From: an uncultured bacterium
Lineage (GTDB): Bacteria > Chlamydiota > Chlamydiia > Chlamydiales > FEN-1388
Length of the DNA: 64,000 nucleotides
Assembly: GCA_964514655.1 (NCBI GenBank)
Contig: CAZEQY010000005.1
Coordinates: 37,589 to 101,588 of the forward strand
Reading direction: 5' to 3'
Below, piece after piece: positions 2,518 through 47,573 of this stretch. Numbering within the stretch: position 1 is the stretch's first letter; every line of letters begins with the position of its first letter. The notes under the pieces were generated by a model. That model had not been told where the DNA came from. It searched no databases and saw only the letters and a program-made list of their open reading frames with translations. The translations under genes were made by a program, and so were the position numbers.

Positions 2518-3246
2518 ATGAGTTCTCGTAAAGTACTAATAGGATTTGGCGTGGCTGCATTACTTACTCTCATATGTGCTATGCAGATGGAGCCAAAAGC
2601 AAGTAGCATTGTTGCTCAGGTAAATCGCGAAGTATGGCCATTTACCTTGCCGCCACTACCTTTTGACTATACTACTTTAGAGCCTGTTATTGACGCTAAA
2701 ACAGTAGATATACACTATAGCCGACATCATAAGGCCTATGTGGATGCGCTTAATAAGGCAATTGGAGGATCCCGCTTTCAAAAGCTGAAGCTAGAAGAGC
2801 TTTTTGCACAAGCAAGCAAACTGCCGGCACCGATTCGCAATAACGCAGGCGGTCACTGGAACCACACCTTTTACTGGAGCATCATGCGAAGCCCTGCCAA
2901 TAATCCTGGCCCAAGCCCAAGGTTGGTAGAAGCTTTAAACAAAAATTTTGGATCTTTTGATGCCTTTAAAGCTAAGTTTAGAGAAGCTGGCCTTACAGAC
3001 TTTGGAAGTGGCTGGTCATGGCTTGTGCTTATGCCGGATGGCACCTTGCAGGTCTATGCCTCTCATAATCAAGATAATCCGCTTATGGACAATGCAGAAG
3101 TTAGGGGAAAACCGCTACTTGCCTGCGATGTTTGGGAACATGCCTACTACCTAAAATACCTAAACAGGCGAGATGAGTACATGGATAGCTTTTGGAATAT
3201 AGTCGACTGGCAGCGTGTTGAAGCGCGCATGCAAGGTGATCAGTAG
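2518..3246 (+). CDS. Fe/Mn-family superoxide dismutase with an N-terminal hydrophobic (export) extension
   Basis: DIHYSRHHKAYV, NNAGGHWNHTFYW and the family signature DVWEHAYYL are all present. The first ~25 aa (KVLIGFGVAALLTLICA) look like a signal peptide or anchor. Confidence 0.9.
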   Translation: MSSRKVLIGFGVAALLTLICAMQMEPKASSIVAQVNREVWPFTLPPLPFDYTTLEPVIDAKTVDIHYSRHHKAYVDALNKAIGGSRFQKLKLEELFAQASKLPAPIRNNAGGHWNHTFYWSIMRSPANNPGPSPRLVEALNKNFGSFDAFKAKFREAGLTDFGSGWSWLVLMPDGTLQVYASHNQDNPLMDNAEVRGKPLLACDVWEHAYYLKYLNRRDEYMDSFWNIVDWQRVEARMQGDQ

Positions 3247-3247
3247 T

Positions 3248-4675
3248 ATGAGTTCGGTAGGGCGTGATAAGCATGTTGCTAGAAGCAATTTTGCCCACGA
3301 AAAGAGTGCGCCAGTTAAAAAGAGGCCTGCCTCTCGTAAAATAGCCACAAAGATTGTAAAGCTAGAGCTTTTGCATACAGCTGAAAAGATGAGAAAATTG
3401 ATTCAGCCACTTTTGCCTATTGAGGGAAGAGATGTCTATTTTGTAAACCAAACAAATCCCCACGCGGTGTTCAAGCCGGGAAAGACAAATACCGTAAAAG
3501 CTATCTTGTGTGCCAAGGTCGCAAAAATCGTTGGGCTTGATGCAAGCGTTCCCAAGGCAATAGAGGCTAGGGTTCCACAGCTTGTCAGTTCTGATGATCT
3601 TGACACTTTTGGTAATCCAATAGAATACGAAGAGGTCCTTGTGAACGGCCAAAAGTGGTTGATAAATCCAGACGATGCTCTTGGCATACGGTATGAACGA
3701 ATAGATTCTGAAGGGCACTTTATAAAGCTAGAAGATGGTTCAAGCTATATTCTTGAACAGGTAGGCGATGCCTACTATGCCAAGGTGACAAGTGATGATG
3801 AGGAGACAGACACTGAAGATAGCTTTGATGATGAGCTTGTGGTCATAGCATCAATAGATGATGAGCCTCTTTTAGTGAGAAAAAGTGGCGCGCACCTTGT
3901 TAGCGAGAATGAAGATAGCCCTCATGTTATGCGAAGGGGAGTGCGGTATGATTTTGAAGAGTCAAAGCTTGTTGCTAAAGATGTTGAAGGCTTTTTGCAG
4001 CCATTTGTAAAAGACGTTGTTACCGAAATTGGAGGCAATAAAGTAGATGTTACGCGATCTTCTACTGTGCGCAATACATTTTATGCCATGATCAACATGA
4101 ATTCGTTTATCGACAGTATGGTGCTTGCCACACTTTTTAGAACGCAAGATGGTAAGGCAACAAGTCTTGAAGAAACGAATTTTCTATTTACTCAAGAGAA
4201 AGATCACCTCAACCTTGTGCTCATAGACCTTGATGAAACCTTTCCAATAGATAATGGAATCACCAAAGATCCGGAACTTGTAAAGCACGGGGATGTTGCT
4301 GCTTTACGTCTTGGGCTAATGGGCTATCCACAAGCTCATCAAAATCTAGAAGGTGAAGCTAAAGAGCATCTAGAAGCACTTTTAACGACTATCGAAGCTA
4401 ATAGAGCTCGTCTTGTACGTGCTTGTAGCAAATACCAGGACAAAGAAGTGCAGGCTGCCTTTATGCAAGTGCTAGACAGGCTCCAAGTCTTTCATGAGAC
4501 TAAAACCCATGAGCCATACACCCTTGCAGATCTAGTCTTTTTTGTATTTCCCGAATATGAAAAACAGTGGCAACAACTAGCCAAAACCAACCTATCAAAA
4601 GAAGAAATTGCCGCCTATATAGGCTACGGCAGTATAGCAGAACTACAAGCCCACAAACCTAAATTATTTGCATAA
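3248..4675 (+). CDS. PI3/PI4-kinase-like protein (type II PI4K-like), candidate effector
   Basis: GRDVYFVNQTNPHAVFKPGK resembles the type II PI4K block GSYFV...AVFKPK. LFRTQDGK...ETNFLF and LVLIDLDETFP resemble DRGNDNWLI and IDNGLAFP. An acidic tract TSDDEETDTEDSFDDE is present. I chose the start at ATG 3248 (AAGGTGA lies 10 nt upstream) rather than 3215, which overlaps sod. Confidence 0.5.
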   Translation: MSSVGRDKHVARSNFAHEKSAPVKKRPASRKIATKIVKLELLHTAEKMRKLIQPLLPIEGRDVYFVNQTNPHAVFKPGKTNTVKAILCAKVAKIVGLDASVPKAIEARVPQLVSSDDLDTFGNPIEYEEVLVNGQKWLINPDDALGIRYERIDSEGHFIKLEDGSSYILEQVGDAYYAKVTSDDEETDTEDSFDDELVVIASIDDEPLLVRKSGAHLVSENEDSPHVMRRGVRYDFEESKLVAKDVEGFLQPFVKDVVTEIGGNKVDVTRSSTVRNTFYAMINMNSFIDSMVLATLFRTQDGKATSLEETNFLFTQEKDHLNLVLIDLDETFPIDNGITKDPELVKHGDVAALRLGLMGYPQAHQNLEGEAKEHLEALLTTIEANRARLVRACSKYQDKEVQAAFMQVLDRLQVFHETKTHEPYTLADLVFFVFPEYEKQWQQLAKTNLSKEEIAAYIGYGSIAELQAHKPKLFA

Positions 4676-4720
4676 ATCATCATGATTCAGGCATACCAAT
4701 CCAAATAAAATGGGGACACA

Positions 4721-5263
4721 ATGTATATCGACAAACTCACTTCGGCAGCATCTTATATAAAGGGCGCTCTTGCGGCTCTTCCGGCGGCAGTTACAAAACA
4801 AGTAACGGACAACGTGGCATGGGTTGCAAGTACATTTTTGCAAAATTCCGCCAATAGCTACTGCCTTGCCCCGCCAGGATCACAATTTACAAGTAATTTA
4901 ACATGTAGTACCCCTGAAATTGCAGTTCGAGAGTTTACATTACTTATGCAAAACTGTAGTGCCGTGCGGGTCACCGGAGAATTCTGCAAAGACCTGCTTA
5001 AAAAAATAACATATGGGGATGGTGCATGCACTCTAGCGTACAACGACCCCATATACGCCTGTTTTGACAGTATCCTAAACGCGACAGTTCCCAGTAGTCC
5101 ACTGCCTAACACATCATCAGTCAACGAAATTATCATAGGCTCGGCGTTGGGCGGTGCGTTGGTACTCAGTGTAGTAGTGGTAGTCGCTTGCGCCTACAAC
5201 CACGAAAAAATCGCTAGGTGTTGCCGAGGCCTCCGCAAAGGAAGCTATGGGGAGATTGTATAG
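4721..5263 (+). CDS. Hypothetical Cys-rich protein with a single C-terminal TM helix and a short basic tail
   Basis: 180-aa ORF with a C-terminal IIIGSALGGALVLSVVVVVACAY followed by NHEKIARCCRGLRKG. It has about 12 Cys in total. Confidence 0.55.
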   Translation: MYIDKLTSAASYIKGALAALPAAVTKQVTDNVAWVASTFLQNSANSYCLAPPGSQFTSNLTCSTPEIAVREFTLLMQNCSAVRVTGEFCKDLLKKITYGDGACTLAYNDPIYACFDSILNATVPSSPLPNTSSVNEIIIGSALGGALVLSVVVVVACAYNHEKIARCCRGLRKGSYGEIV

Positions 5264-7382: not shown

Positions 7383-9188
7383 ATGATCCAGTTTGAAGAT
7401 GTTACAAAGGCCTATGGTGGCCAGTTAGTTATAGAGCATGTGAGCTTTGCTTTGGCAAGTCGCGAGCGCCTTGCCCTTGTTGGTAGAAATGGTGCAGGCA
7501 AGACTACCCTCTTTCGGCTTATTATGGGGATTGAAGAGCCTGATGAGGGCAAGATTCGGCTGCCAAAAGGCTACAAAGTAGGCATGCTGGAGCAGCACAT
7601 TCACTTTACAAAAGAGACAGTGCTTGATGAAGCCTGTCTTGGGCTTAGCCACGAAGAAAAAGATAATGTCTATAAGGCTGAAAGCATTTTATTTGGCCTT
7701 GGCTTTCAAAAAGATGACCTTGCAAAGTCGCCTTCGCTATTTTCTGGTGGCTATCACCTGCGGCTACATCTTGCAAAGCTTTTACTTTCTCAGCCAGACT
7801 GTTTGCTACTAGATGAGCCTACAAACTATCTTGATATCTTGTCTATACGGTGGCTTGGGCAGTTTTTGCGCAATTGGCCGGGCGAGCTTATTATGATCTC
7901 CCACGATAGACAGTTTTTAGATAGTGTTTGTACGCACACAGTTGGTATTCATAGAAAAGGCATTAAAAAGGTTCAGGGACCAACTGAAAAGCTTTTTGAG
8001 CAGCTTGCACTCGAAGAAGAGGTCTACGAAAAGACGCGCGTTGCTCTAGAAAAAAAGAAGGCTCACCTTCAGTCGTTTATAGACCGCTTTGGGGCAAAAA
8101 ACACAAAAGCAGCTCAAGCTCAAGCTCGCCAAAAAGCGATAAATAGACTTCCCTCACTCTCAGCGTTATGTTCTATAGATAATCTTAGCTTTAGCTTTCC
8201 AGCTGCTCACACAAATTCTAAAGTTCTGCTTAAGGTAAATGAGCTGTCGTTTGGCTACACAACTCCCCTCATCCAAAACTTTTCGCTAGAACTTGAAAAA
8301 GATGCGCGACTTGGCATCATCGGCAAAAACGGCAAGGGAAAGTCCACGCTGCTACGCCTTTTTCTTGGCGATCTTACGCCGGTAAGCGGCACAATAACGC
8401 TTACCTCAGGTATTACCGTGGGCTACTTTGGTCAAAGCCATATTGAGCGTCTGCACCTTGACAATACGGTGATGGATGAAATACGCGCCGCAAATCCAAA
8501 CCTCAGCCAGCAAGATGCCCGCAGCATTGCCGGCAAGATGATGTTTACGCAAGATCGCTCAGAAAAAAAGATAGGTGTGCTCTCTGGTGGCGAGAGAAGC
8601 CGCGTTGTTCTTGGCAAGCTTTTAGCAAAGCCATGTCATATGCTGCTTCTAGATGAGCCCACAAATCACCTTGACGTTGAGTCGATGGAAGCCTTTATGG
8701 ATGCGCTAGAAGAGTTTGAAGGTGCTGTATGTATTGTTACCCACTCTGAGCTTGTACTAGAAAGACTTGCCACAAAGCTTATTGTCTTTCAAAATAACAC
8801 CCAGCAGCTATTTTTGGGCGGCTACGATGAGTTTTTGCAAAAAGGTGGCTGGCAAGAAGAAGTAGAGACTCAAGAAAAAGCTCCTCGTCTACAAAAAGAA
8901 GCAAAAAGAGAGCGTGCAGAACTTGTTAACGAACGCTCGCGCGCCCTAAAGCCACATACAAAAAAGCAAGAAGAGCTAGAAGGGCGCATCATAAAGAGCG
9001 AAGAAGAAGTGGCAGAGTTTAATACACAGCTTCTACAGGCTGTTCAGGAAGGTAAATCTAGCGCTATTGGCGAGTTGTCAAAATCCATTAAGGAGCGGCA
9101 AAATTTGATTGATCAACTTTTTGTCGAGCTTGAAGAAGTTTCTAATAAAATCGAAGAAATCAAGCAGCAATATCAGGCCCGACTTTAA
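7383..9188 (+). CDS. ABC-F family ATPase (two ABC domains, no TM domain, C-terminal coiled coil)
   Basis: Walker A motifs GRNGAGKTT and GKNGKGKST, signature motifs FSGGYHLR and LSGGERSR, and a K/E-rich C-terminal tail. Confidence 0.9.
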   Translation: MIQFEDVTKAYGGQLVIEHVSFALASRERLALVGRNGAGKTTLFRLIMGIEEPDEGKIRLPKGYKVGMLEQHIHFTKETVLDEACLGLSHEEKDNVYKAESILFGLGFQKDDLAKSPSLFSGGYHLRLHLAKLLLSQPDCLLLDEPTNYLDILSIRWLGQFLRNWPGELIMISHDRQFLDSVCTHTVGIHRKGIKKVQGPTEKLFEQLALEEEVYEKTRVALEKKKAHLQSFIDRFGAKNTKAAQAQARQKAINRLPSLSALCSIDNLSFSFPAAHTNSKVLLKVNELSFGYTTPLIQNFSLELEKDARLGIIGKNGKGKSTLLRLFLGDLTPVSGTITLTSGITVGYFGQSHIERLHLDNTVMDEIRAANPNLSQQDARSIAGKMMFTQDRSEKKIGVLSGGERSRVVLGKLLAKPCHMLLLDEPTNHLDVESMEAFMDALEEFEGAVCIVTHSELVLERLATKLIVFQNNTQQLFLGGYDEFLQKGGWQEEVETQEKAPRLQKEAKRERAELVNERSRALKPHTKKQEELEGRIIKSEEEVAEFNTQLLQAVQEGKSSAIGELSKSIKERQNLIDQLFVELEEVSNKIEEIKQQYQARL

Positions 9189-32510: not shown

Positions 32511-33137
32511 ATGAAAGAATCTATTACACGCGAAATGACAATAAACGAGATTTTTGCCAAGTTTCCTGCCAAGGCGCAAAAGCTTGCTCAAGAACTCACA
32601 CGATCTGGCTTAAACTGCGTTGGCTGTTCGGCTTCGACATGGGAAACCGTAGAATCTGGCGTTCTTCGTCATGGCATGAATGAACAAGACCTTAATGACC
32701 TTTTAGATCGCCTCAATACCGTTCTTCTTCATGAATCAGACCCAACAACAGTAACTCTTACTCCAAACGCTGCTCAGGTGTTTTTGCGCATCAGCAGCCA
32801 GGAAGGTAAAGAAGGCTGGGCCCTTCGTTTTGACGAAAAGCCAGCTGGCTGTAGCGGTTTTGAGTATGTGCTTGGCTTTTCAGAAAAGGCTGGCCCAAAT
32901 GACGAAGTATATCATTCTAACGGCGTAGACATCCACGTCTATAAACAAGCTCTTGGCCGCCTCCAAGGCTGCGAAATCGACTACGTCGATGGCCTACAAT
33001 CAGGCTTTAAAATCACAAATCCAAACGTAAGCACTTCATGCGGCTGCGGCTCTAGCCACGGCTACGACGACGAAGTCATGGAAAACGAAACCGGAGGCTG
33101 CGGCTCCGGCGGTTGTGGTTCCGGCGGCTGCTGTTAA
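32511..33137 (+). CDS. DUF1858-like domain fused to an IscA/HesB-type Fe-S cluster insertion domain, with a Gly/Cys tail
   Basis: The N-terminus TINEIFAKFP...GLNCVGCSAS looks like the DUF1858/ScdA_N type. The IscA core is RFDEKPAGCSGFEY ... NPNVSTSCGCGSS. The tail is GGCGSGGCGSGGCC. Confidence 0.7.
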   Translation: MKESITREMTINEIFAKFPAKAQKLAQELTRSGLNCVGCSASTWETVESGVLRHGMNEQDLNDLLDRLNTVLLHESDPTTVTLTPNAAQVFLRISSQEGKEGWALRFDEKPAGCSGFEYVLGFSEKAGPNDEVYHSNGVDIHVYKQALGRLQGCEIDYVDGLQSGFKITNPNVSTSCGCGSSHGYDDEVMENETGGCGSGGCGSGGCC

Positions 33138-33151
33138 GGTATTTGTTCTTA

Positions 33152-33243
33152 AGCCCGTTAGGGCGACTGCCTATAGCCCACAGCGACCAACGGGAGCTGT
33201 GGGAAATGAAGCTCCATCTCCTTAGAGCCCTTCAGGGCGACTG
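33152..33243 (+). repeat. REP-like composite repeat (52-nt unit + 22-nt spacer + 18-nt partial unit), left flank of the RAYT gene
   Basis: The unit is agcccgttagggcgactgcctatagcccacagcgaccaacgggagctgtggg (33152-33203), with the internal stem cccacagc/gctgtggg. The partial unit agcccttcagggcgactg (33226-33243) overlaps the last codons of the RAYT gene. Confidence 0.85.
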
Positions 33244-33690
33244 ATCTTTATTATTCACATCAGCCATCCATTTGATACCCCAAAGTTTATTCAAGTTATC
33301 TATCTCTTGGTCAAAAGTGTCTGTTTTATGGTGTTCTTTTTGGTTTTCAATGTATTTTGTGAGCGCATCTATATGTGTTACGGAACACGAAAAAGCTCCA
33401 TAACCTTCTTGCCAACTAAAGTCCTTAATACCCTGCGTTTTCATCCAGCTTGTGCTATATGACTTTAATTCTTTCATCAGTGTGCTGAGTGCTACAGAAG
33501 CATGTAATTTTAGCATCATATGAATATGATCACTCATGCCATTTACTTTTAAAATTGGAACCTGTCTCTTACGAGCGATACCTCCAAAATAACTATAGAG
33601 TCTGTTTTCTAGATCAAATGGAATAAGCGGCGACCTATTTTTCGTTGAGAAAATTACATGCAGATAAATTTCTACAGAGCTATGAGACAT
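33232..33690 (-). CDS. IS200/IS605-family Y1 (HUH) transposase-like protein, RAYT-like
   Basis: LHVIFSTKNR, the HUH motif DHIHMMLKL, WQEGYGAFS and the catalytic-Tyr helix TKYIENQKEHH. The protein is 152 aa and is flanked by inverted REP-like repeats. Confidence 0.85.
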   Translation of the reverse strand: MSHSSVEIYLHVIFSTKNRSPLIPFDLENRLYSYFGGIARKRQVPILKVNGMSDHIHMMLKLHASVALSTLMKELKSYSTSWMKTQGIKDFSWQEGYGAFSCSVTHIDALTKYIENQKEHHKTDTFDQEIDNLNKLWGIKWMADVNNKDQSP

Positions 33691-33719
33691 ACGCTATTCC
33701 TTATTCTAGTCTATCTTAT

Positions 33720-33810
33720 CAGTCGCCCTAACGGGCTCCCCTCGTGGATATTCCCTTTCCCACAGCTCCCGTTGGTCGCTATGGGCTATAGGCGGTCGCC
33801 CTAACGGGCT
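33720..33810 (-). repeat. REP-like composite repeat, right flank of the RAYT gene (inverted relative to the left flank)
   Basis: cagtcgccctaacgggct (33720-33737) is the exact reverse complement of the first 18 nt of the unit. A full unit in reverse orientation sits at 33759-33810 with 2 mismatches. Confidence 0.85.
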
Positions 33811-33835
33811 CTTACTTGAGGCCACCTCGAACAAG

Positions 33836-33962
33836 AGCCCGCCAGGGGCGACTGCTTACAGCCCACAGCGACCAGCGGGAGCTGTGGGAAAAGAAGTTGC
33901 CTTCCCCTAGAGCCTGTTAGGGCGACTGCCTATAGCCCACAGCGACCAACGGGAGCTGTGGG
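33836..33962 (+). repeat. Two further REP-like units in direct tandem (75-nt period)
   Basis: Units at 33836-33888 (variant) and 33911-33962 (near identical to 33152-33203). The first unit is head-to-head with the 33759-33810 unit. Confidence 0.85.
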
Positions 33963-33977
33963 GGTGGGGATATTGTA

Positions 33978-34802
33978 TTATTGATGTTTCCAGGTGACGG
34001 AGAAGTCTTTGCCGTCATTTTTTAGGTCTGATGTGGCTGCTTTCATGGTGCCTTTTTTGGCTTCCATGTTTAGTAGCTCTGCTTGCCATGAGCCTTGGTC
34101 GATGTAGCCTGTTTTGCCGTTGATGGTGGCTTGGCAGTCTGTCATCGTTACATTGCTAAAGTTAGCAAGTGGCAATACGCCATCGGCTGTAGCTGGAGCT
34201 TCTACAATCCACTCTGCTGAGCTTCGCTTGGTGCCGGGAGCTACTGTGTGAGAAGTTGGCACGGTTGTTGTTACGCTCTTTGTGTGGTTGTTGAGCACAA
34301 GCTTATAGGTGTTGTTTCCTTGGTAGGTAACACTTGCTGAAATAACATCACCCGGTTCTACAGGAAAGCCTTTTAGCTGGTGAGGATATTTGGGATACAT
34401 CTCAAACCATGCGTAGTGCTCTTCTTTACCGTTATCCCAATCGTGTTCAGTACCAATTTGCTGTACAGAGCCGCTGCCGTAGCCATCAATTCCTACCCAT
34501 ATTGAGCAGTATGTTGCATCTTTTGATGATGTTATATGTGGCACGGTCCATGTTCCAGAGACCATAGAAACAGCGCCTGCTTGAGGATTTTTTAGGCCGG
34601 TAGCTGCAGCGTAGCCGCTCCAGTTTTCGCTTGTACCATCACGTAGTTTTATGTGATGTGGCGTAGGGTTTTTTCTTCCGCGAGGATGTACCTGACAATC
34701 TATTCGACGTAGTACCTTAAAGGGCAATACTTTCTTCTGTTCTGCCCAACCACTCGTAAACGTGATTATAAAGGCAAACGTTAACACGCACAAATTTTTC
34801 AT
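33978..34802 (-). CDS. Peptidase family G1 (eqolisin / former A4) glutamic peptidase, secreted
   Basis: Signal peptide MKNLCVLTFAFIITFTSGWA. Motifs are ENWSGYAA, YCSIWVGIDGYGSGSVQQIGTEHD (catalytic Gln context) and SAEWIVEAP (catalytic Glu context). Confidence 0.6.
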   Translation of the reverse strand: MKNLCVLTFAFIITFTSGWAEQKKVLPFKVLRRIDCQVHPRGRKNPTPHHIKLRDGTSENWSGYAAATGLKNPQAGAVSMVSGTWTVPHITSSKDATYCSIWVGIDGYGSGSVQQIGTEHDWDNGKEEHYAWFEMYPKYPHQLKGFPVEPGDVISASVTYQGNNTYKLVLNNHTKSVTTTVPTSHTVAPGTKRSSAEWIVEAPATADGVLPLANFSNVTMTDCQATINGKTGYIDQGSWQAELLNMEAKKGTMKAATSDLKNDGKDFSVTWKHQ

Positions 34803-34870
34803 GGGAATACTCCATTTTTTTGTTTCACGTTAACGCTTGTAGTGGAACAAAAAAATGAAAGCAATAGAAA

Positions 34871-46220: not shown

Positions 46221-47573
46221 ATGCCAGATTTTATTAGAATTAATAGTCCTATTGTGCCAAATGAATATGCATCTTTATCAGATGCTCCGAAATTTGCAAG
46301 TCAAGGAAGGAGATACACTGTCGAGGGTGTGGAGTATGAATTAGTTATTAAAAAACGTGAGTCATATTCATATGGCAAAATCGCGCTCGCTGCTTTAGCT
46401 GTGATTGTTACATTAGGTAACGCTATGTTGCTAAAATCTATTCGCAGTATTATTTTTAAGCAATACAAGAACGTGCGTTTTGCTATTCCTACAGAGTGTT
46501 TTGATAAGCTAAAAGAGGCTCCAACGCCATATCGACTCGAGGCAAAACTTGAGAAATTAAATTCATTTTATTTTGATTATCTCAAAAGACGAGATCCTGA
46601 TCAACTTAAAGAAATTATCAAAACATACGTTAACTCCACTGCAGAGGAAACAGATGTGCAACTTCTTACTTCGTTTATAAAAGAAAAGTTTGATGACATC
46701 GATTTTCTTATTTCAGATAAGGATTGCGATGAGATACAACGAAGTTTTATTCCTTCTGCTCAAGAAAAAAACACTCGTAAGTTCTGTGCCTGCTTTCTTG
46801 AAGGCCAAGACCTCGCAACGAAAGACCGAATGAAAACGCGCACTGCAAAGTACATGTTATCTGCTAAGCACCTCTCCCCATTAAAAGAAGCTGCAAGTTA
46901 TGCATTTAACCACCCAGAAGAGTTTGATGAGAATGAATATAGAACAGCTGTAGAATATTTTGTTATGTCCAGCGTTTCGGATAGTATTGAAAATCAACGT
47001 AAGGCTATACACTACGTCGCAACTCATTTAGATAAATTTGGCACTAGCTGTAAAGAATGGGCTTTCTTGAGAGCTGCTCAAGCGGCGGCTAGTGGAGATA
47101 ATAGTTTTTTCAGTGATGAAGCTTTTTATGCTGCATTCATCAAACATTATGAAGAGTCAAAAACCAAACCTCGAGCGAATGCGCAAGTCACGCATATTCT
47201 TCTTCCGGTATTAGGTGAGCGATTCAAAAATCATGTAGTTGCAAGCATTCAATCTAGTGATATGATAGATGAAATTGAAGGGTGTATTACTTTACTAAAA
47301 AGACATAAATATGACTCACAAGAGGTCGAAGCCTATCTTGCAAAGAAGCTAATAGAAAGAGTGAAGCAAGGTGTCGGTATTGATGAGAGTTCTAGTGGGC
47401 TGCTTATGGCAAATATCGGTTCTTTATCGTCTGAAGACCAAGTTTTGGTATACCACTATATTTTGTGGAACGCTCGTGATTTTGATCTAAAAGCAAGTGC
47501 AGCAAAATATATCCTAGAAAAGCCAGAAGCTTTTGATGATGAGACTGTTAAAACAGCAAAGACTTTCCAGTAG
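46221..47573 (+). CDS. Hypothetical protein with one TM helix
   Basis: An ATG at 46221 sits 5 nt after GGAGGG. The TM helix is YGKIALAALAVIVTLGNAMLL and the remainder is helical. Confidence 0.6.
   Translation: MPDFIRINSPIVPNEYASLSDAPKFASQGRRYTVEGVEYELVIKKRESYSYGKIALAALAVIVTLGNAMLLKSIRSIIFKQYKNVRFAIPTECFDKLKEAPTPYRLEAKLEKLNSFYFDYLKRRDPDQLKEIIKTYVNSTAEETDVQLLTSFIKEKFDDIDFLISDKDCDEIQRSFIPSAQEKNTRKFCACFLEGQDLATKDRMKTRTAKYMLSAKHLSPLKEAASYAFNHPEEFDENEYRTAVEYFVMSSVSDSIENQRKAIHYVATHLDKFGTSCKEWAFLRAAQAAASGDNSFFSDEAFYAAFIKHYEESKTKPRANAQVTHILLPVLGERFKNHVVASIQSSDMIDEIEGCITLLKRHKYDSQEVEAYLAKKLIERVKQGVGIDESSSGLLMANIGSLSSEDQVLVYHYILWNARDFDLKASAAKYILEKPEAFDDETVKTAKTFQ

Follow-up and report, generated by a model that had tools for sequence, protein, structure and literature searches.

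What kind of system is a single Y1 transposase gene that lies between mirror-image, highly structured repeats in a chlamydia-like genome? The locus that raises this question lies within a 64,000-nucleotide stretch of DNA (the window, G000:C5:37589-101588) from a 2.89-Mb, 81-contig assembly (G000) whose closest relatives are metagenome-assembled genomes (MAGs) of the Chlamydiales and Parachlamydiaceae, in keeping with the chlamydia-like host assumed in the initial annotation of this sequence. That annotation took the locus for a domesticated IS200/IS605 derivative of the RAYT type accompanied by its repetitive extragenic palindromes (REPs). Based on the data presented herein, we put forward a different assignment for the enzyme and a broader one for the system. 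By its sequence signatures the protein is not a RAYT and is a member of TnpA_Y1 subclass 1.2, and the most likely explanation of the locus is, we propose, a system run by this IS200-proximal Y1 enzyme that resembles either a TIRtron or a REPtron, the latter being a TnpA_REP/RAYT with its REP, bacterial interspersed mosaic element (BIME) and REPIN sequences (Nunvar 2010, PMC2817692; Ton-Hoang 2012, PMC3333891; Bertels & Rainey 2011, PMC3116915; structure 4ER8). A low-copy mobile element with REPIN-like satellites describes it better than a vertically inherited, domesticated RAYT.

Structure of the Locus

The transposase is encoded by a tnpA-like open reading frame (ORF) of 152 aa on the minus strand (33232..33690), with a ribosome-binding site (AAGGAA) 7 nt 5' of its ATG; a scan for sigma-70 promoters upstream of the gene found none, and chlamydial promoters may differ from that model. 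The gene lies between a left arm at 33152-33243 and a right arm at 33720-33810 that is its reverse complement (96% over the 55-nt arms and 100% over the 18-nt heads), and each arm, of about 92 nt, has the layout of a 4-bp head hairpin, an 8+2-bp hairpin, a spacer and a second head.

The left arm opens with unit 1 (33152..33203, sense on the plus strand), which is recognized by our covariance model of the repeat, R1, at 83 bits and is supported by DNA folding and by covariation. It consists of the head hairpin GCCC-GTTA-GGGC (33153-33164), a 12-nt linker (GACTGCCTATAG) and the main hairpin (33177-33203), in which CCCACAGC at 33177-33184 and GCTGTGGG at 33196-33203 form an 8-bp stem around the 11-nt loop GACCAACGGGA. 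A 22-nt spacer (33204..33225) leads from unit 1 to the left-arm inner head, AGCCCTTCAGGGCGACTG (18 nt, 33226..33243), all of these being given on the plus strand. Read on the minus strand, the inner head encodes QSP and the stop codon of the transposase (GAT CAG TCG CCC TGA), and the earlier observation that the last residues, (D)QSP, lie within a partial unit is borne out.

On the other side of the gene, the right-arm inner head (33720..33737, minus strand) is situated 29 nt upstream of the ATG and is 100% complementary to 33152-33169. Beyond it lies unit 2, the mirror image of unit 1 (33756..33810, sense on the minus strand; 80.5 bits with R1; 96% complementary to 33152-33206), whose stem holds a T.G wobble (CCCATAGC/GCTGTGGG). 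Two further units in direct orientation lie outside the arms: unit 3 (33836..33888, sense on the plus strand and tail-to-tail with unit 2; 73 bits) and unit 4 (33910..33962, sense on the plus strand; 78 bits). The head of unit 4 doubles as the inner head after unit 3, and its end lies 15 nt before the stop codon of a Peptidase_A4 gene on the ORF map. The ORF, the inverted arms and the two extra direct units are all where the initial annotation had placed them, and its 8-bp stem with an 11-nt loop and its gccc-gtta-gggc head are seen in unit 1. The 27-nt hairpin core has four matches in the window and none in 100 shuffles.

The Transposase

The ORF product matches Pfam Y1_Tnp (PF01797, E=3.9e-27) and carries the HUH motif H55-I-H57, the pair W93-Q94, the tyrosine motif Y113-x3-Q117-x2-H120-H121 and a 30-aa C-terminal tail; 31 residues follow the HH pair and include a helix at 126-137 in the AlphaFold2 (AF2) model. 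H55/H57, Y113 and Q117 are invariant among 38 homologues, as are all of the subclass 1.2 motifs, and Y113 aligns on the tyrosine of the YIENQ motif of the IS608 transposase in an alignment with PDB sequences. The protein is thus a Y1/HUH enzyme with its catalytic residues intact, including the tyrosine on which the first reading depended. The ratio of nonsynonymous to synonymous divergence (dN/dS) is 0.09-0.13 against four orthologues, which indicates purifying selection on the transposase.

The identification of the protein as a RAYT has to be given up. It passes the NCBIfam IS200/IS605 equivalog model (73 bits versus a cut-off of 55) and fails REP_Tyr_transpos (NF047646; 26.4 bits versus a cut-off of 80), and its tyrosine motif is YIENQKEHH instead of Y..NP. 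The matches among PDB sequences are the TnpA proteins of IS608 and ISDra2, and E. coli TnpA_REP (4ER8) gave no match among these sequences even at E up to 10. The AF2 model (38 homologues, mean pLDDT 88.5) has ISDra2 and IS608 TnpA as its top Foldseek matches (E=3e-9), while 4ER8 ranks only 30th by fold. In a tree, a split supported at 100/100 sets the window protein apart from the class-2 Y1 proteins of its own genome (YIHLNP or YVEANP); the sole subclass 1.1 reference in this tree is a truncated, very long-branched remnant on C4, and the tree separates class 1 from class 2, not 1.1 from 1.2. A classical RAYT is ruled out by the NCBIfam score, the tyrosine motif, the PDB sequences, the fold rank and the tree.

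The positive assignment follows the classification of Quentin et al. 2018 (BMC Genomics 19:475, PMC6006769), in which Y1 proteins fall into class 1 (subclass 1.1, IS200/IS605, and subclass 1.2), class 2 (TnpA_REP/RAYT-like) and class 3. For subclass 1.2, Table 1 of that paper gives DH[IV]H, WQ, YIKNQKEHH (Y---Q--HH), a median length of 148 aa and a 30-aa tail; the subclass occurs at 1.7 copies per genome at about 36% identity, mostly in Cyanobacteria and Bacteroidetes, and is entered there as 'REP: no' and as lacking, in general, terminal secondary structures (PMC6006769). Because it has DHIH, WQ, YIENQKEHH, a length of 152 aa, a 31-residue tail and one paralogue at 43% identity, we assign the window protein on these sequence features to subclass 1.2 and not to the RAYTs, the entry 'REP: no' being a descriptive and not a defining property of the subclass. 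The genome holds two subclass-1.2 copies, 43% identical to each other. The window gene itself is single-copy and has no adjoining tnpB, and it does not have the form of the multi-copy insertion sequence (IS) with tnpB that the initial annotation had named as the alternative.

The same genome also contains four long class-2 Y1 genes (YIHLNP or YVEANP, 225-341 aa) at C14:78751-79077, C30:161-493, C35:1334-1657 and C64:492-827. The C4 remnant (C4:18259-18552) is truncated, IS200-like and fused into a 253-aa frame, and three Y1 classes or subclasses are present in one genome.

The Repeat Unit and Its Doublets

We built R1 from the 57-nt unit and ran it on the nine genomes of the genus and on 32 genomes of other genera and families. 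In this genome a profile search gave 12 units and R1 gave 13 hits, at six loci in each case: the window has four units, C7 and C20 each carry a complete doublet without the gene, C18 has two units placed tail-to-tail, and C8 and C54 have one unit each. The loci are extragenic in all six cases and for the most part adjoin gene 3' ends, and four of the 13 units lie within 0.8 kb of the transposase gene in a genome of 2.89 Mb. Confinement of the unit to this locus would have spoken against the initial annotation, and it is not what is seen: all nine genomes of the genus are positive, with 13, 35, 16, at least 137, 5, 45, 10, 2 and 15 hits, while R1 found essentially no hits in the 32 genomes from outside the genus. 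The repeat is a genus-specific marker, present in 2 to at least 137 copies, that breaks assemblies and for that reason probably contributes to genome rearrangement.

Both the head and the main hairpin are supported by covariation. Of the cells in 75 distinct units, 98.8% pair, and compensatory changes are seen in four pairs (91 cells), whereas just 32-51% of cells pair in a control in which the 3' partner is slid by 1-3 columns. Several unpaired bases are near-invariant: the main stem has AG at its foot, its loop contains GA..A, and the head is followed by GAyTG. Their conservation makes them look like a protein-recognition surface. A GT[AG]G-like cleavage motif 5' of the hairpin foot, which the initial annotation had suggested looking for, was not found in 76 units: the tetranucleotide preceding the main stem is ATAG in 27, GAAG in 26, TTAG in 7 and GTAG in 1. 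Only the AG is conserved, the final two bases being A in 76/76 and G in 74/76 units, and GTAG was rejected as a guide motif.

Most of the dispersed copies are gene-less palindromic doublets of about 215 nt. Alignment of 20 gene-less copies from two congeners (G003 and G005) together with those on C7 and C20 gives termini of TGTTTTAGAGCCC...GGGCTCTAAAACA and a centre of 15-25 nt, so that a doublet is a gene-bearing element with a short centre in place of the gene. The gene-bearing elements of relatives have a TTGTTyT-type outer flank in common with the doublets. At the window locus the stretch GGTATTTGTTCTT (33139..33151, plus strand), directly after the stop codon of an Fe-S carrier gene, resembles the TTGTTTT terminus of the gene-less doublets; this is a weak likeness, seen by eye against the doublet alignment and the relatives' outer flanks.

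A direct flanking repeat of at least 4 nt, as a target-site duplication would leave, occurs in 1/20 doublets versus 7% in controls. The absence of target-site duplication is consistent with single-strand Y1 chemistry and speaks against a DDE-type MITE (a miniature transposable element with inverted repeats), and a classical, DDE-derived MITE was rejected given no duplication above chance at the 20 doublets. At the C18 site the unit is absent in five congeners, where the orthologues of the neighbouring gene are about 52% identical, a divergence at which the absence is visible and the exact junctions are not. For the gene that adjoins the C20 doublet, five congeners have no orthologue.

Pairing of Genes and Repeats

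The arrangement of a plus-strand unit, the gene and a minus-strand unit recurs in G005, G003, L003, L130, L031 and L032, and weakly in L065, with proteins of 45-87% identity. Altogether, 8/9 chlamydial homologues examined are bracketed like the window gene, and a truncated copy in G001 has kept the upstream unit alone. In the four relatives that were read row by row (G005, G003, L130 and L003) it is the genome's own stem variant that flanks the gene; in G003, for example, the CCCACCGT/ACGGTGGG stem is found beside the gene and in the dispersed copies alike. Units are 0.78-0.85 alike within genomes versus 0.67-0.78 between genomes, and the unit distances of G000/G005 and G000/G003 parallel protein identities of 82% and 60%. 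The four genomes in which a close orthologue is present hold 13, 35, 45 and at least 137 units and the five in which none was found hold 2-16, a comparison that is descriptive, the genomes being related and incomplete drafts.

Independent support for this pairing comes from the second subclass-1.2 gene of the same genome (C10:93725-94971; locus L019 2725-3971). Its product, of 150 aa with the motif YISNQKEHH, is the paralogue that is 43% identical to the window protein, and it is flanked by 217-nt inverted arms, 95% identical, that belong to a different multi-hairpin family (family 2, with the hairpins CAGCC-TGAAG-GGCTG, CCTAGGGC-AAC-GCCCTAGG and others). About nine other loci carry dispersed copies of family 2, frequently in inverted pairs, and it also brackets the orthologues of the paralogue in G005 (79%) and G004 (73%).

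Two relatives show further variations. In G005 (L016, G005:C5:924000-942000) the orthologues of both paralogues, at 2796-3245 and 8529-8972, lie only 5 kb apart, each accompanied by the repeat family proper to it, with a tandem amplification of family 2 between them (2263-2772). At L001, on a 3.12-Mb contig, an orthologue (4469-4830, 72% identical) has diverged heads (GAGTCCGTAGGAC) and, downstream, a 136-nt perfect-type inverted repeat with a head nested within the main hairpin's loop; upstream of this gene no unit was detected.

Inheritance and Alternative Explanations

The neighbours of the transposase gene are different in G005 (82%), G003, G001, L001, L003 and L130 (87% identical). The block upstream of the window gene (a 655-aa protein, a ferredoxin and the Fe-S carrier) is conserved across the genus, and the site after the Fe-S carrier contains no Y1 gene and no clear unit in G001, G002, G003 and G005; there are two sub-threshold unit matches at this site in G002, and G008 is uninformative as its contig ends about 60 nt after the gene. 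The synonymous divergence (dS) of the transposase gene between G000 and G005 is 0.86 versus 1.47 for two adjacent housekeeping genes, while between G000 and G003 the transposase dS is saturated and that of the housekeeping genes is 1.3-1.6. The differing neighbours and the incongruent dS point to movement, probably with transfer within the genus, and argue against a fixed domesticated locus. The proposal of domestication is not supported, the gene being non-syntenic in every relative examined, and vertical inheritance was rejected as no synteny was found among these relatives. Plasmids and phages, as possible carriers, yielded no close relatives: the best match is 42% identical, on a Persicobacter replicon, and phage matches reach at most 31% identity.

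At 33140-37100 the Y1 element makes up a variable block together with the Peptidase_A4 (G1) and OTU genes; in G001, G002, G003 and G005 other DNA comes after the Fe-S carrier gene, and the synteny of G003 with the window resumes about 4 kb on, at about 37103. The two neighbours, described as effector-like in the initial annotation, do match Peptidase_A4 (family G1, E=1.8e-40) and OTU (E=4.8e-9).

A gene that moves could also belong to an ordinary, autonomous IS of the IS200 family with chance inverted ends and MITEs, a selfish element without any special single-copy lifestyle, its low copy number being an accident of sampling or of draft assemblies. We consider this unlikely, but it is the likeliest of the alternatives: the NCBIfam IS200 equivalog is matched, the element has an IS200-like size of 656-757 nt in 6/7 gene-bearing copies measured, each relative has it in a different neighbourhood, the dS between the window and G005 is below that of the adjacent genes, and the distribution within the genus is patchy. 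It does not account for the presence of one close copy per genome in every genome examined, including two near-complete assemblies of 7 and 10 contigs with several distant paralogues and no second close copy, when ISs of subclass 1.1 average 4.8 near-identical copies per genome (PMC6006769). Moreover, the ends are symmetric inverted arms and not the same-strand left-end and right-end (LE/RE) hairpins of IS200/IS605, and the gene-less form is far commoner, with at least 137 units versus one gene in G003.

It is very improbable that the gene and the repeats are unlinked, with the doublets serving as a pre-existing insertion target at the centre of which a minimal Y1 gene happened to land. ISs that target REPs are known (PMC1525189), several unrelated palindromic families, some of them nested, crowd this genome and those of its congeners, and the gene is exactly central in a doublet-like structure. 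Nevertheless, there is no room for separate IS ends, since the stop codon falls within one inner head and the other inner head is 29 nt before the ATG, and a terminal ..SP inside the head is seen in several chlamydial orthologues as well. An accidental landing also does not explain why the bracketing is retained in eight homologues, why the unit variants diverge with the gene in the four relatives read row by row, or why, in three genomes, the second paralogue goes with another repeat family.

A third alternative takes the doublets for structures with a regulatory role in the host, namely bidirectional terminators or mRNA stabilisers at gene 3' ends, multiplied through recombination or template switching, with the Y1 gene as a mere neighbour. 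It is hardly credible either. In its favour, every locus is extragenic and most adjoin gene 3' ends, the palindrome reaches into the flanks at C20 and C8, and T.G wobbles (27 cells versus 13 for all other mismatches) hint that one strand folds. Against it, no T-run follows the hairpins (termini TAAAACA) and the sole terminator-like call on a unit is a weak 5-bp one, on which grounds terminator function was rejected; there is no Rfam match to a known RNA family in 32800-34300, and the specific pairing with two different Y1 paralogues is left unexplained.

The system that we favour, in which a Y1 enzyme of subclass 1.2 serves its own repeats, has evidence against it as well. The copy number in this genome (13) is far below that of classical REPs and the likeness among its units is only about 78%, so that activity in it may date from long ago. 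No close orthologue was detected in five congeners that hold 2-16 units, all five being 81-90% complete drafts, and in these the units either persist beyond the life of the gene or are served by a different paralogue. Divergence at the orthologous sites compared (about 52% aa identity) is too great for base-precise pairs of filled and empty sites, and the dS comparison involves two housekeeping genes and is near saturation. Finally, bracketing repeats were positive in just 13/80 loci of other phyla, where inverted repeats between the gene flanks exceed the maximum of a mismatched-flank control and include one 172-nt pair in a Candidatus Berkiella MAG; the 80 loci have the same protein motifs as the window gene, but they were chosen by peptide patterns including ENQKEHHK, which biases the motif count.

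A Hypothetical Mechanism

For binding, cleavage sites, strand preference and mobilisation itself, we infer the following scheme for a REPtron/TIRtron-like system run by the subclass 1.2 enzyme. The system has two forms. The first is the unit of about 0.66 kb, present once per genome, in which tnpA lies between two inverted composite arms of about 92 nt; the second, dispersed form has the same arms joined by a centre of 15-25 nt to give the palindromic doublet of about 215 nt. The HUH/Y1 protein would bind the conserved hairpins in single-stranded DNA, and recognition may involve the hairpins together with the conserved unpaired bases described above (AG, GA..A and GAyTG). Cutting and rejoining would then proceed through Tyr113 and the His55/His57/Gln117 metal site, by analogy with the TnpA proteins of IS608 and ISDra2. 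We propose that the protein also acts in trans on the doublets, which would in consequence behave as non-autonomous elements, and that the gene-bearing unit itself relocates, probably also between host lineages within the genus.

We suggest more tentatively, and with somewhat more doubt than belief, that subclass 1.2 enzymes as a group mobilise their own hairpin-doublet families and represent a second origin of the one-gene-many-satellites lifestyle, independent of the class-2 RAYTs, in which the gene-bearing unit is still moving and transferring between lineages. If true, such enzymes would be a living intermediate between IS200 and REPtrons, even in the obligate intracellular Chlamydiae.

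Comparison with Known Systems

The window protein agrees with subclass 1.2 as described (PMC6006769) in all protein signatures, in its short length, in its tail and in its low copy number (here two, at 43%), but in place of the 'REP: no' of that paper, structured arms and dispersed copies are found here for both paralogues, and in the Chlamydiales. The layout is that of a REPtron: a single-copy Y1 gene lies between inverted hairpin repeats, these repeats are dispersed extragenically, for the most part in inverted doublets, every paralogue goes with a repeat family of its own, and the enzyme varies in concert with the repeat. It differs from a REPtron in having a class 1 protein (Y...Q, not Y..NP), no GT[AG]G, a two-hairpin composite unit and modest copy numbers in most genomes, and in the non-synteny of the gene between relatives, whereas RAYTs are reportedly for the most part inherited vertically at a fixed locus (Bertels 2017).

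TIRtrons offer a similar parallel. Di Nocera, De Gregorio & Rocco 2013 (PMC3733652) described TIRYT genes as RAYT-like, their proteins having motifs that set RAYTs apart from the bulk of IS200 transposases. Like the window gene, a TIRYT gene is flanked by long, partly self-complementary inverted repeats of a moderately abundant family, the repeats occur as dimers and in clusters, and one arm overlaps the 3' end of the gene. The likeness is one of layout; the window protein has the IS200-type Y...Q motif instead. No example from the Chlamydiae was found in PMC3733652, where the three mentions of Chlamydiales are only in the name of the PVC superphylum.

IS200/IS605 elements of subclass 1.1 (IS200, IS608 and ISDra2) provide the closest structures and the closest sequence model, and they share with the window element a length of about 0.7 kb, tnpA as the only gene, hairpin ends and the lack of target-site duplication. 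They have asymmetric, same-strand LE/RE hairpins and several near-identical copies, where we find mirror-image arms, one copy and many gene-less doublets. The system is a REPtron or TIRtron by architecture, IS200-proximal by sequence and a low-copy mobile element by inheritance.

In the searchable literature we found no description of subclass 1.2 enzymes with cognate repeats, nor of such a system in Chlamydiae; the only description of subclass 1.2 that we found is PMC6006769, which states that there are no associated repeats. The subclass now gains a defined candidate substrate, the 57-nt two-hairpin unit with its covariation and invariant unpaired bases, and a second, independent enzyme/repeat pair is available in the same genome. 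With a defined unit and a second pair, the biochemistry is directly testable with oligonucleotides. The relation of the REP/REPIN lifestyle to IS200-like elements has been left open (PMC8266576), and a system that joins REPtron architecture, an IS200-type catalytic motif and non-vertical inheritance bears on this question.

The Element Boundary

The Fe-S carrier (DUF1858 plus Fe-S_biosyn) that precedes the element has, at 33066-33137, a Gly/Cys-rich tail of 22 aa (..GGCGSGGCGSGGCC) that is missing from all five congeners, in which the frames end at residue ~186-188. As the tail ends 14 nt before the repeat element, it may owe its origin to a rearrangement at the element junction. The same intergenic slot is occupied in L026 (G003), L027 (G002) and L029 (G005) by unrelated palindromic families (CTCGAGTTTGGACAT... 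and GGAGTGCGGT..ACCGC), and on C8 of G000 (47150-47330) one unit of the window family is nested inside a CTCGAGTTTGGACAT palindrome.

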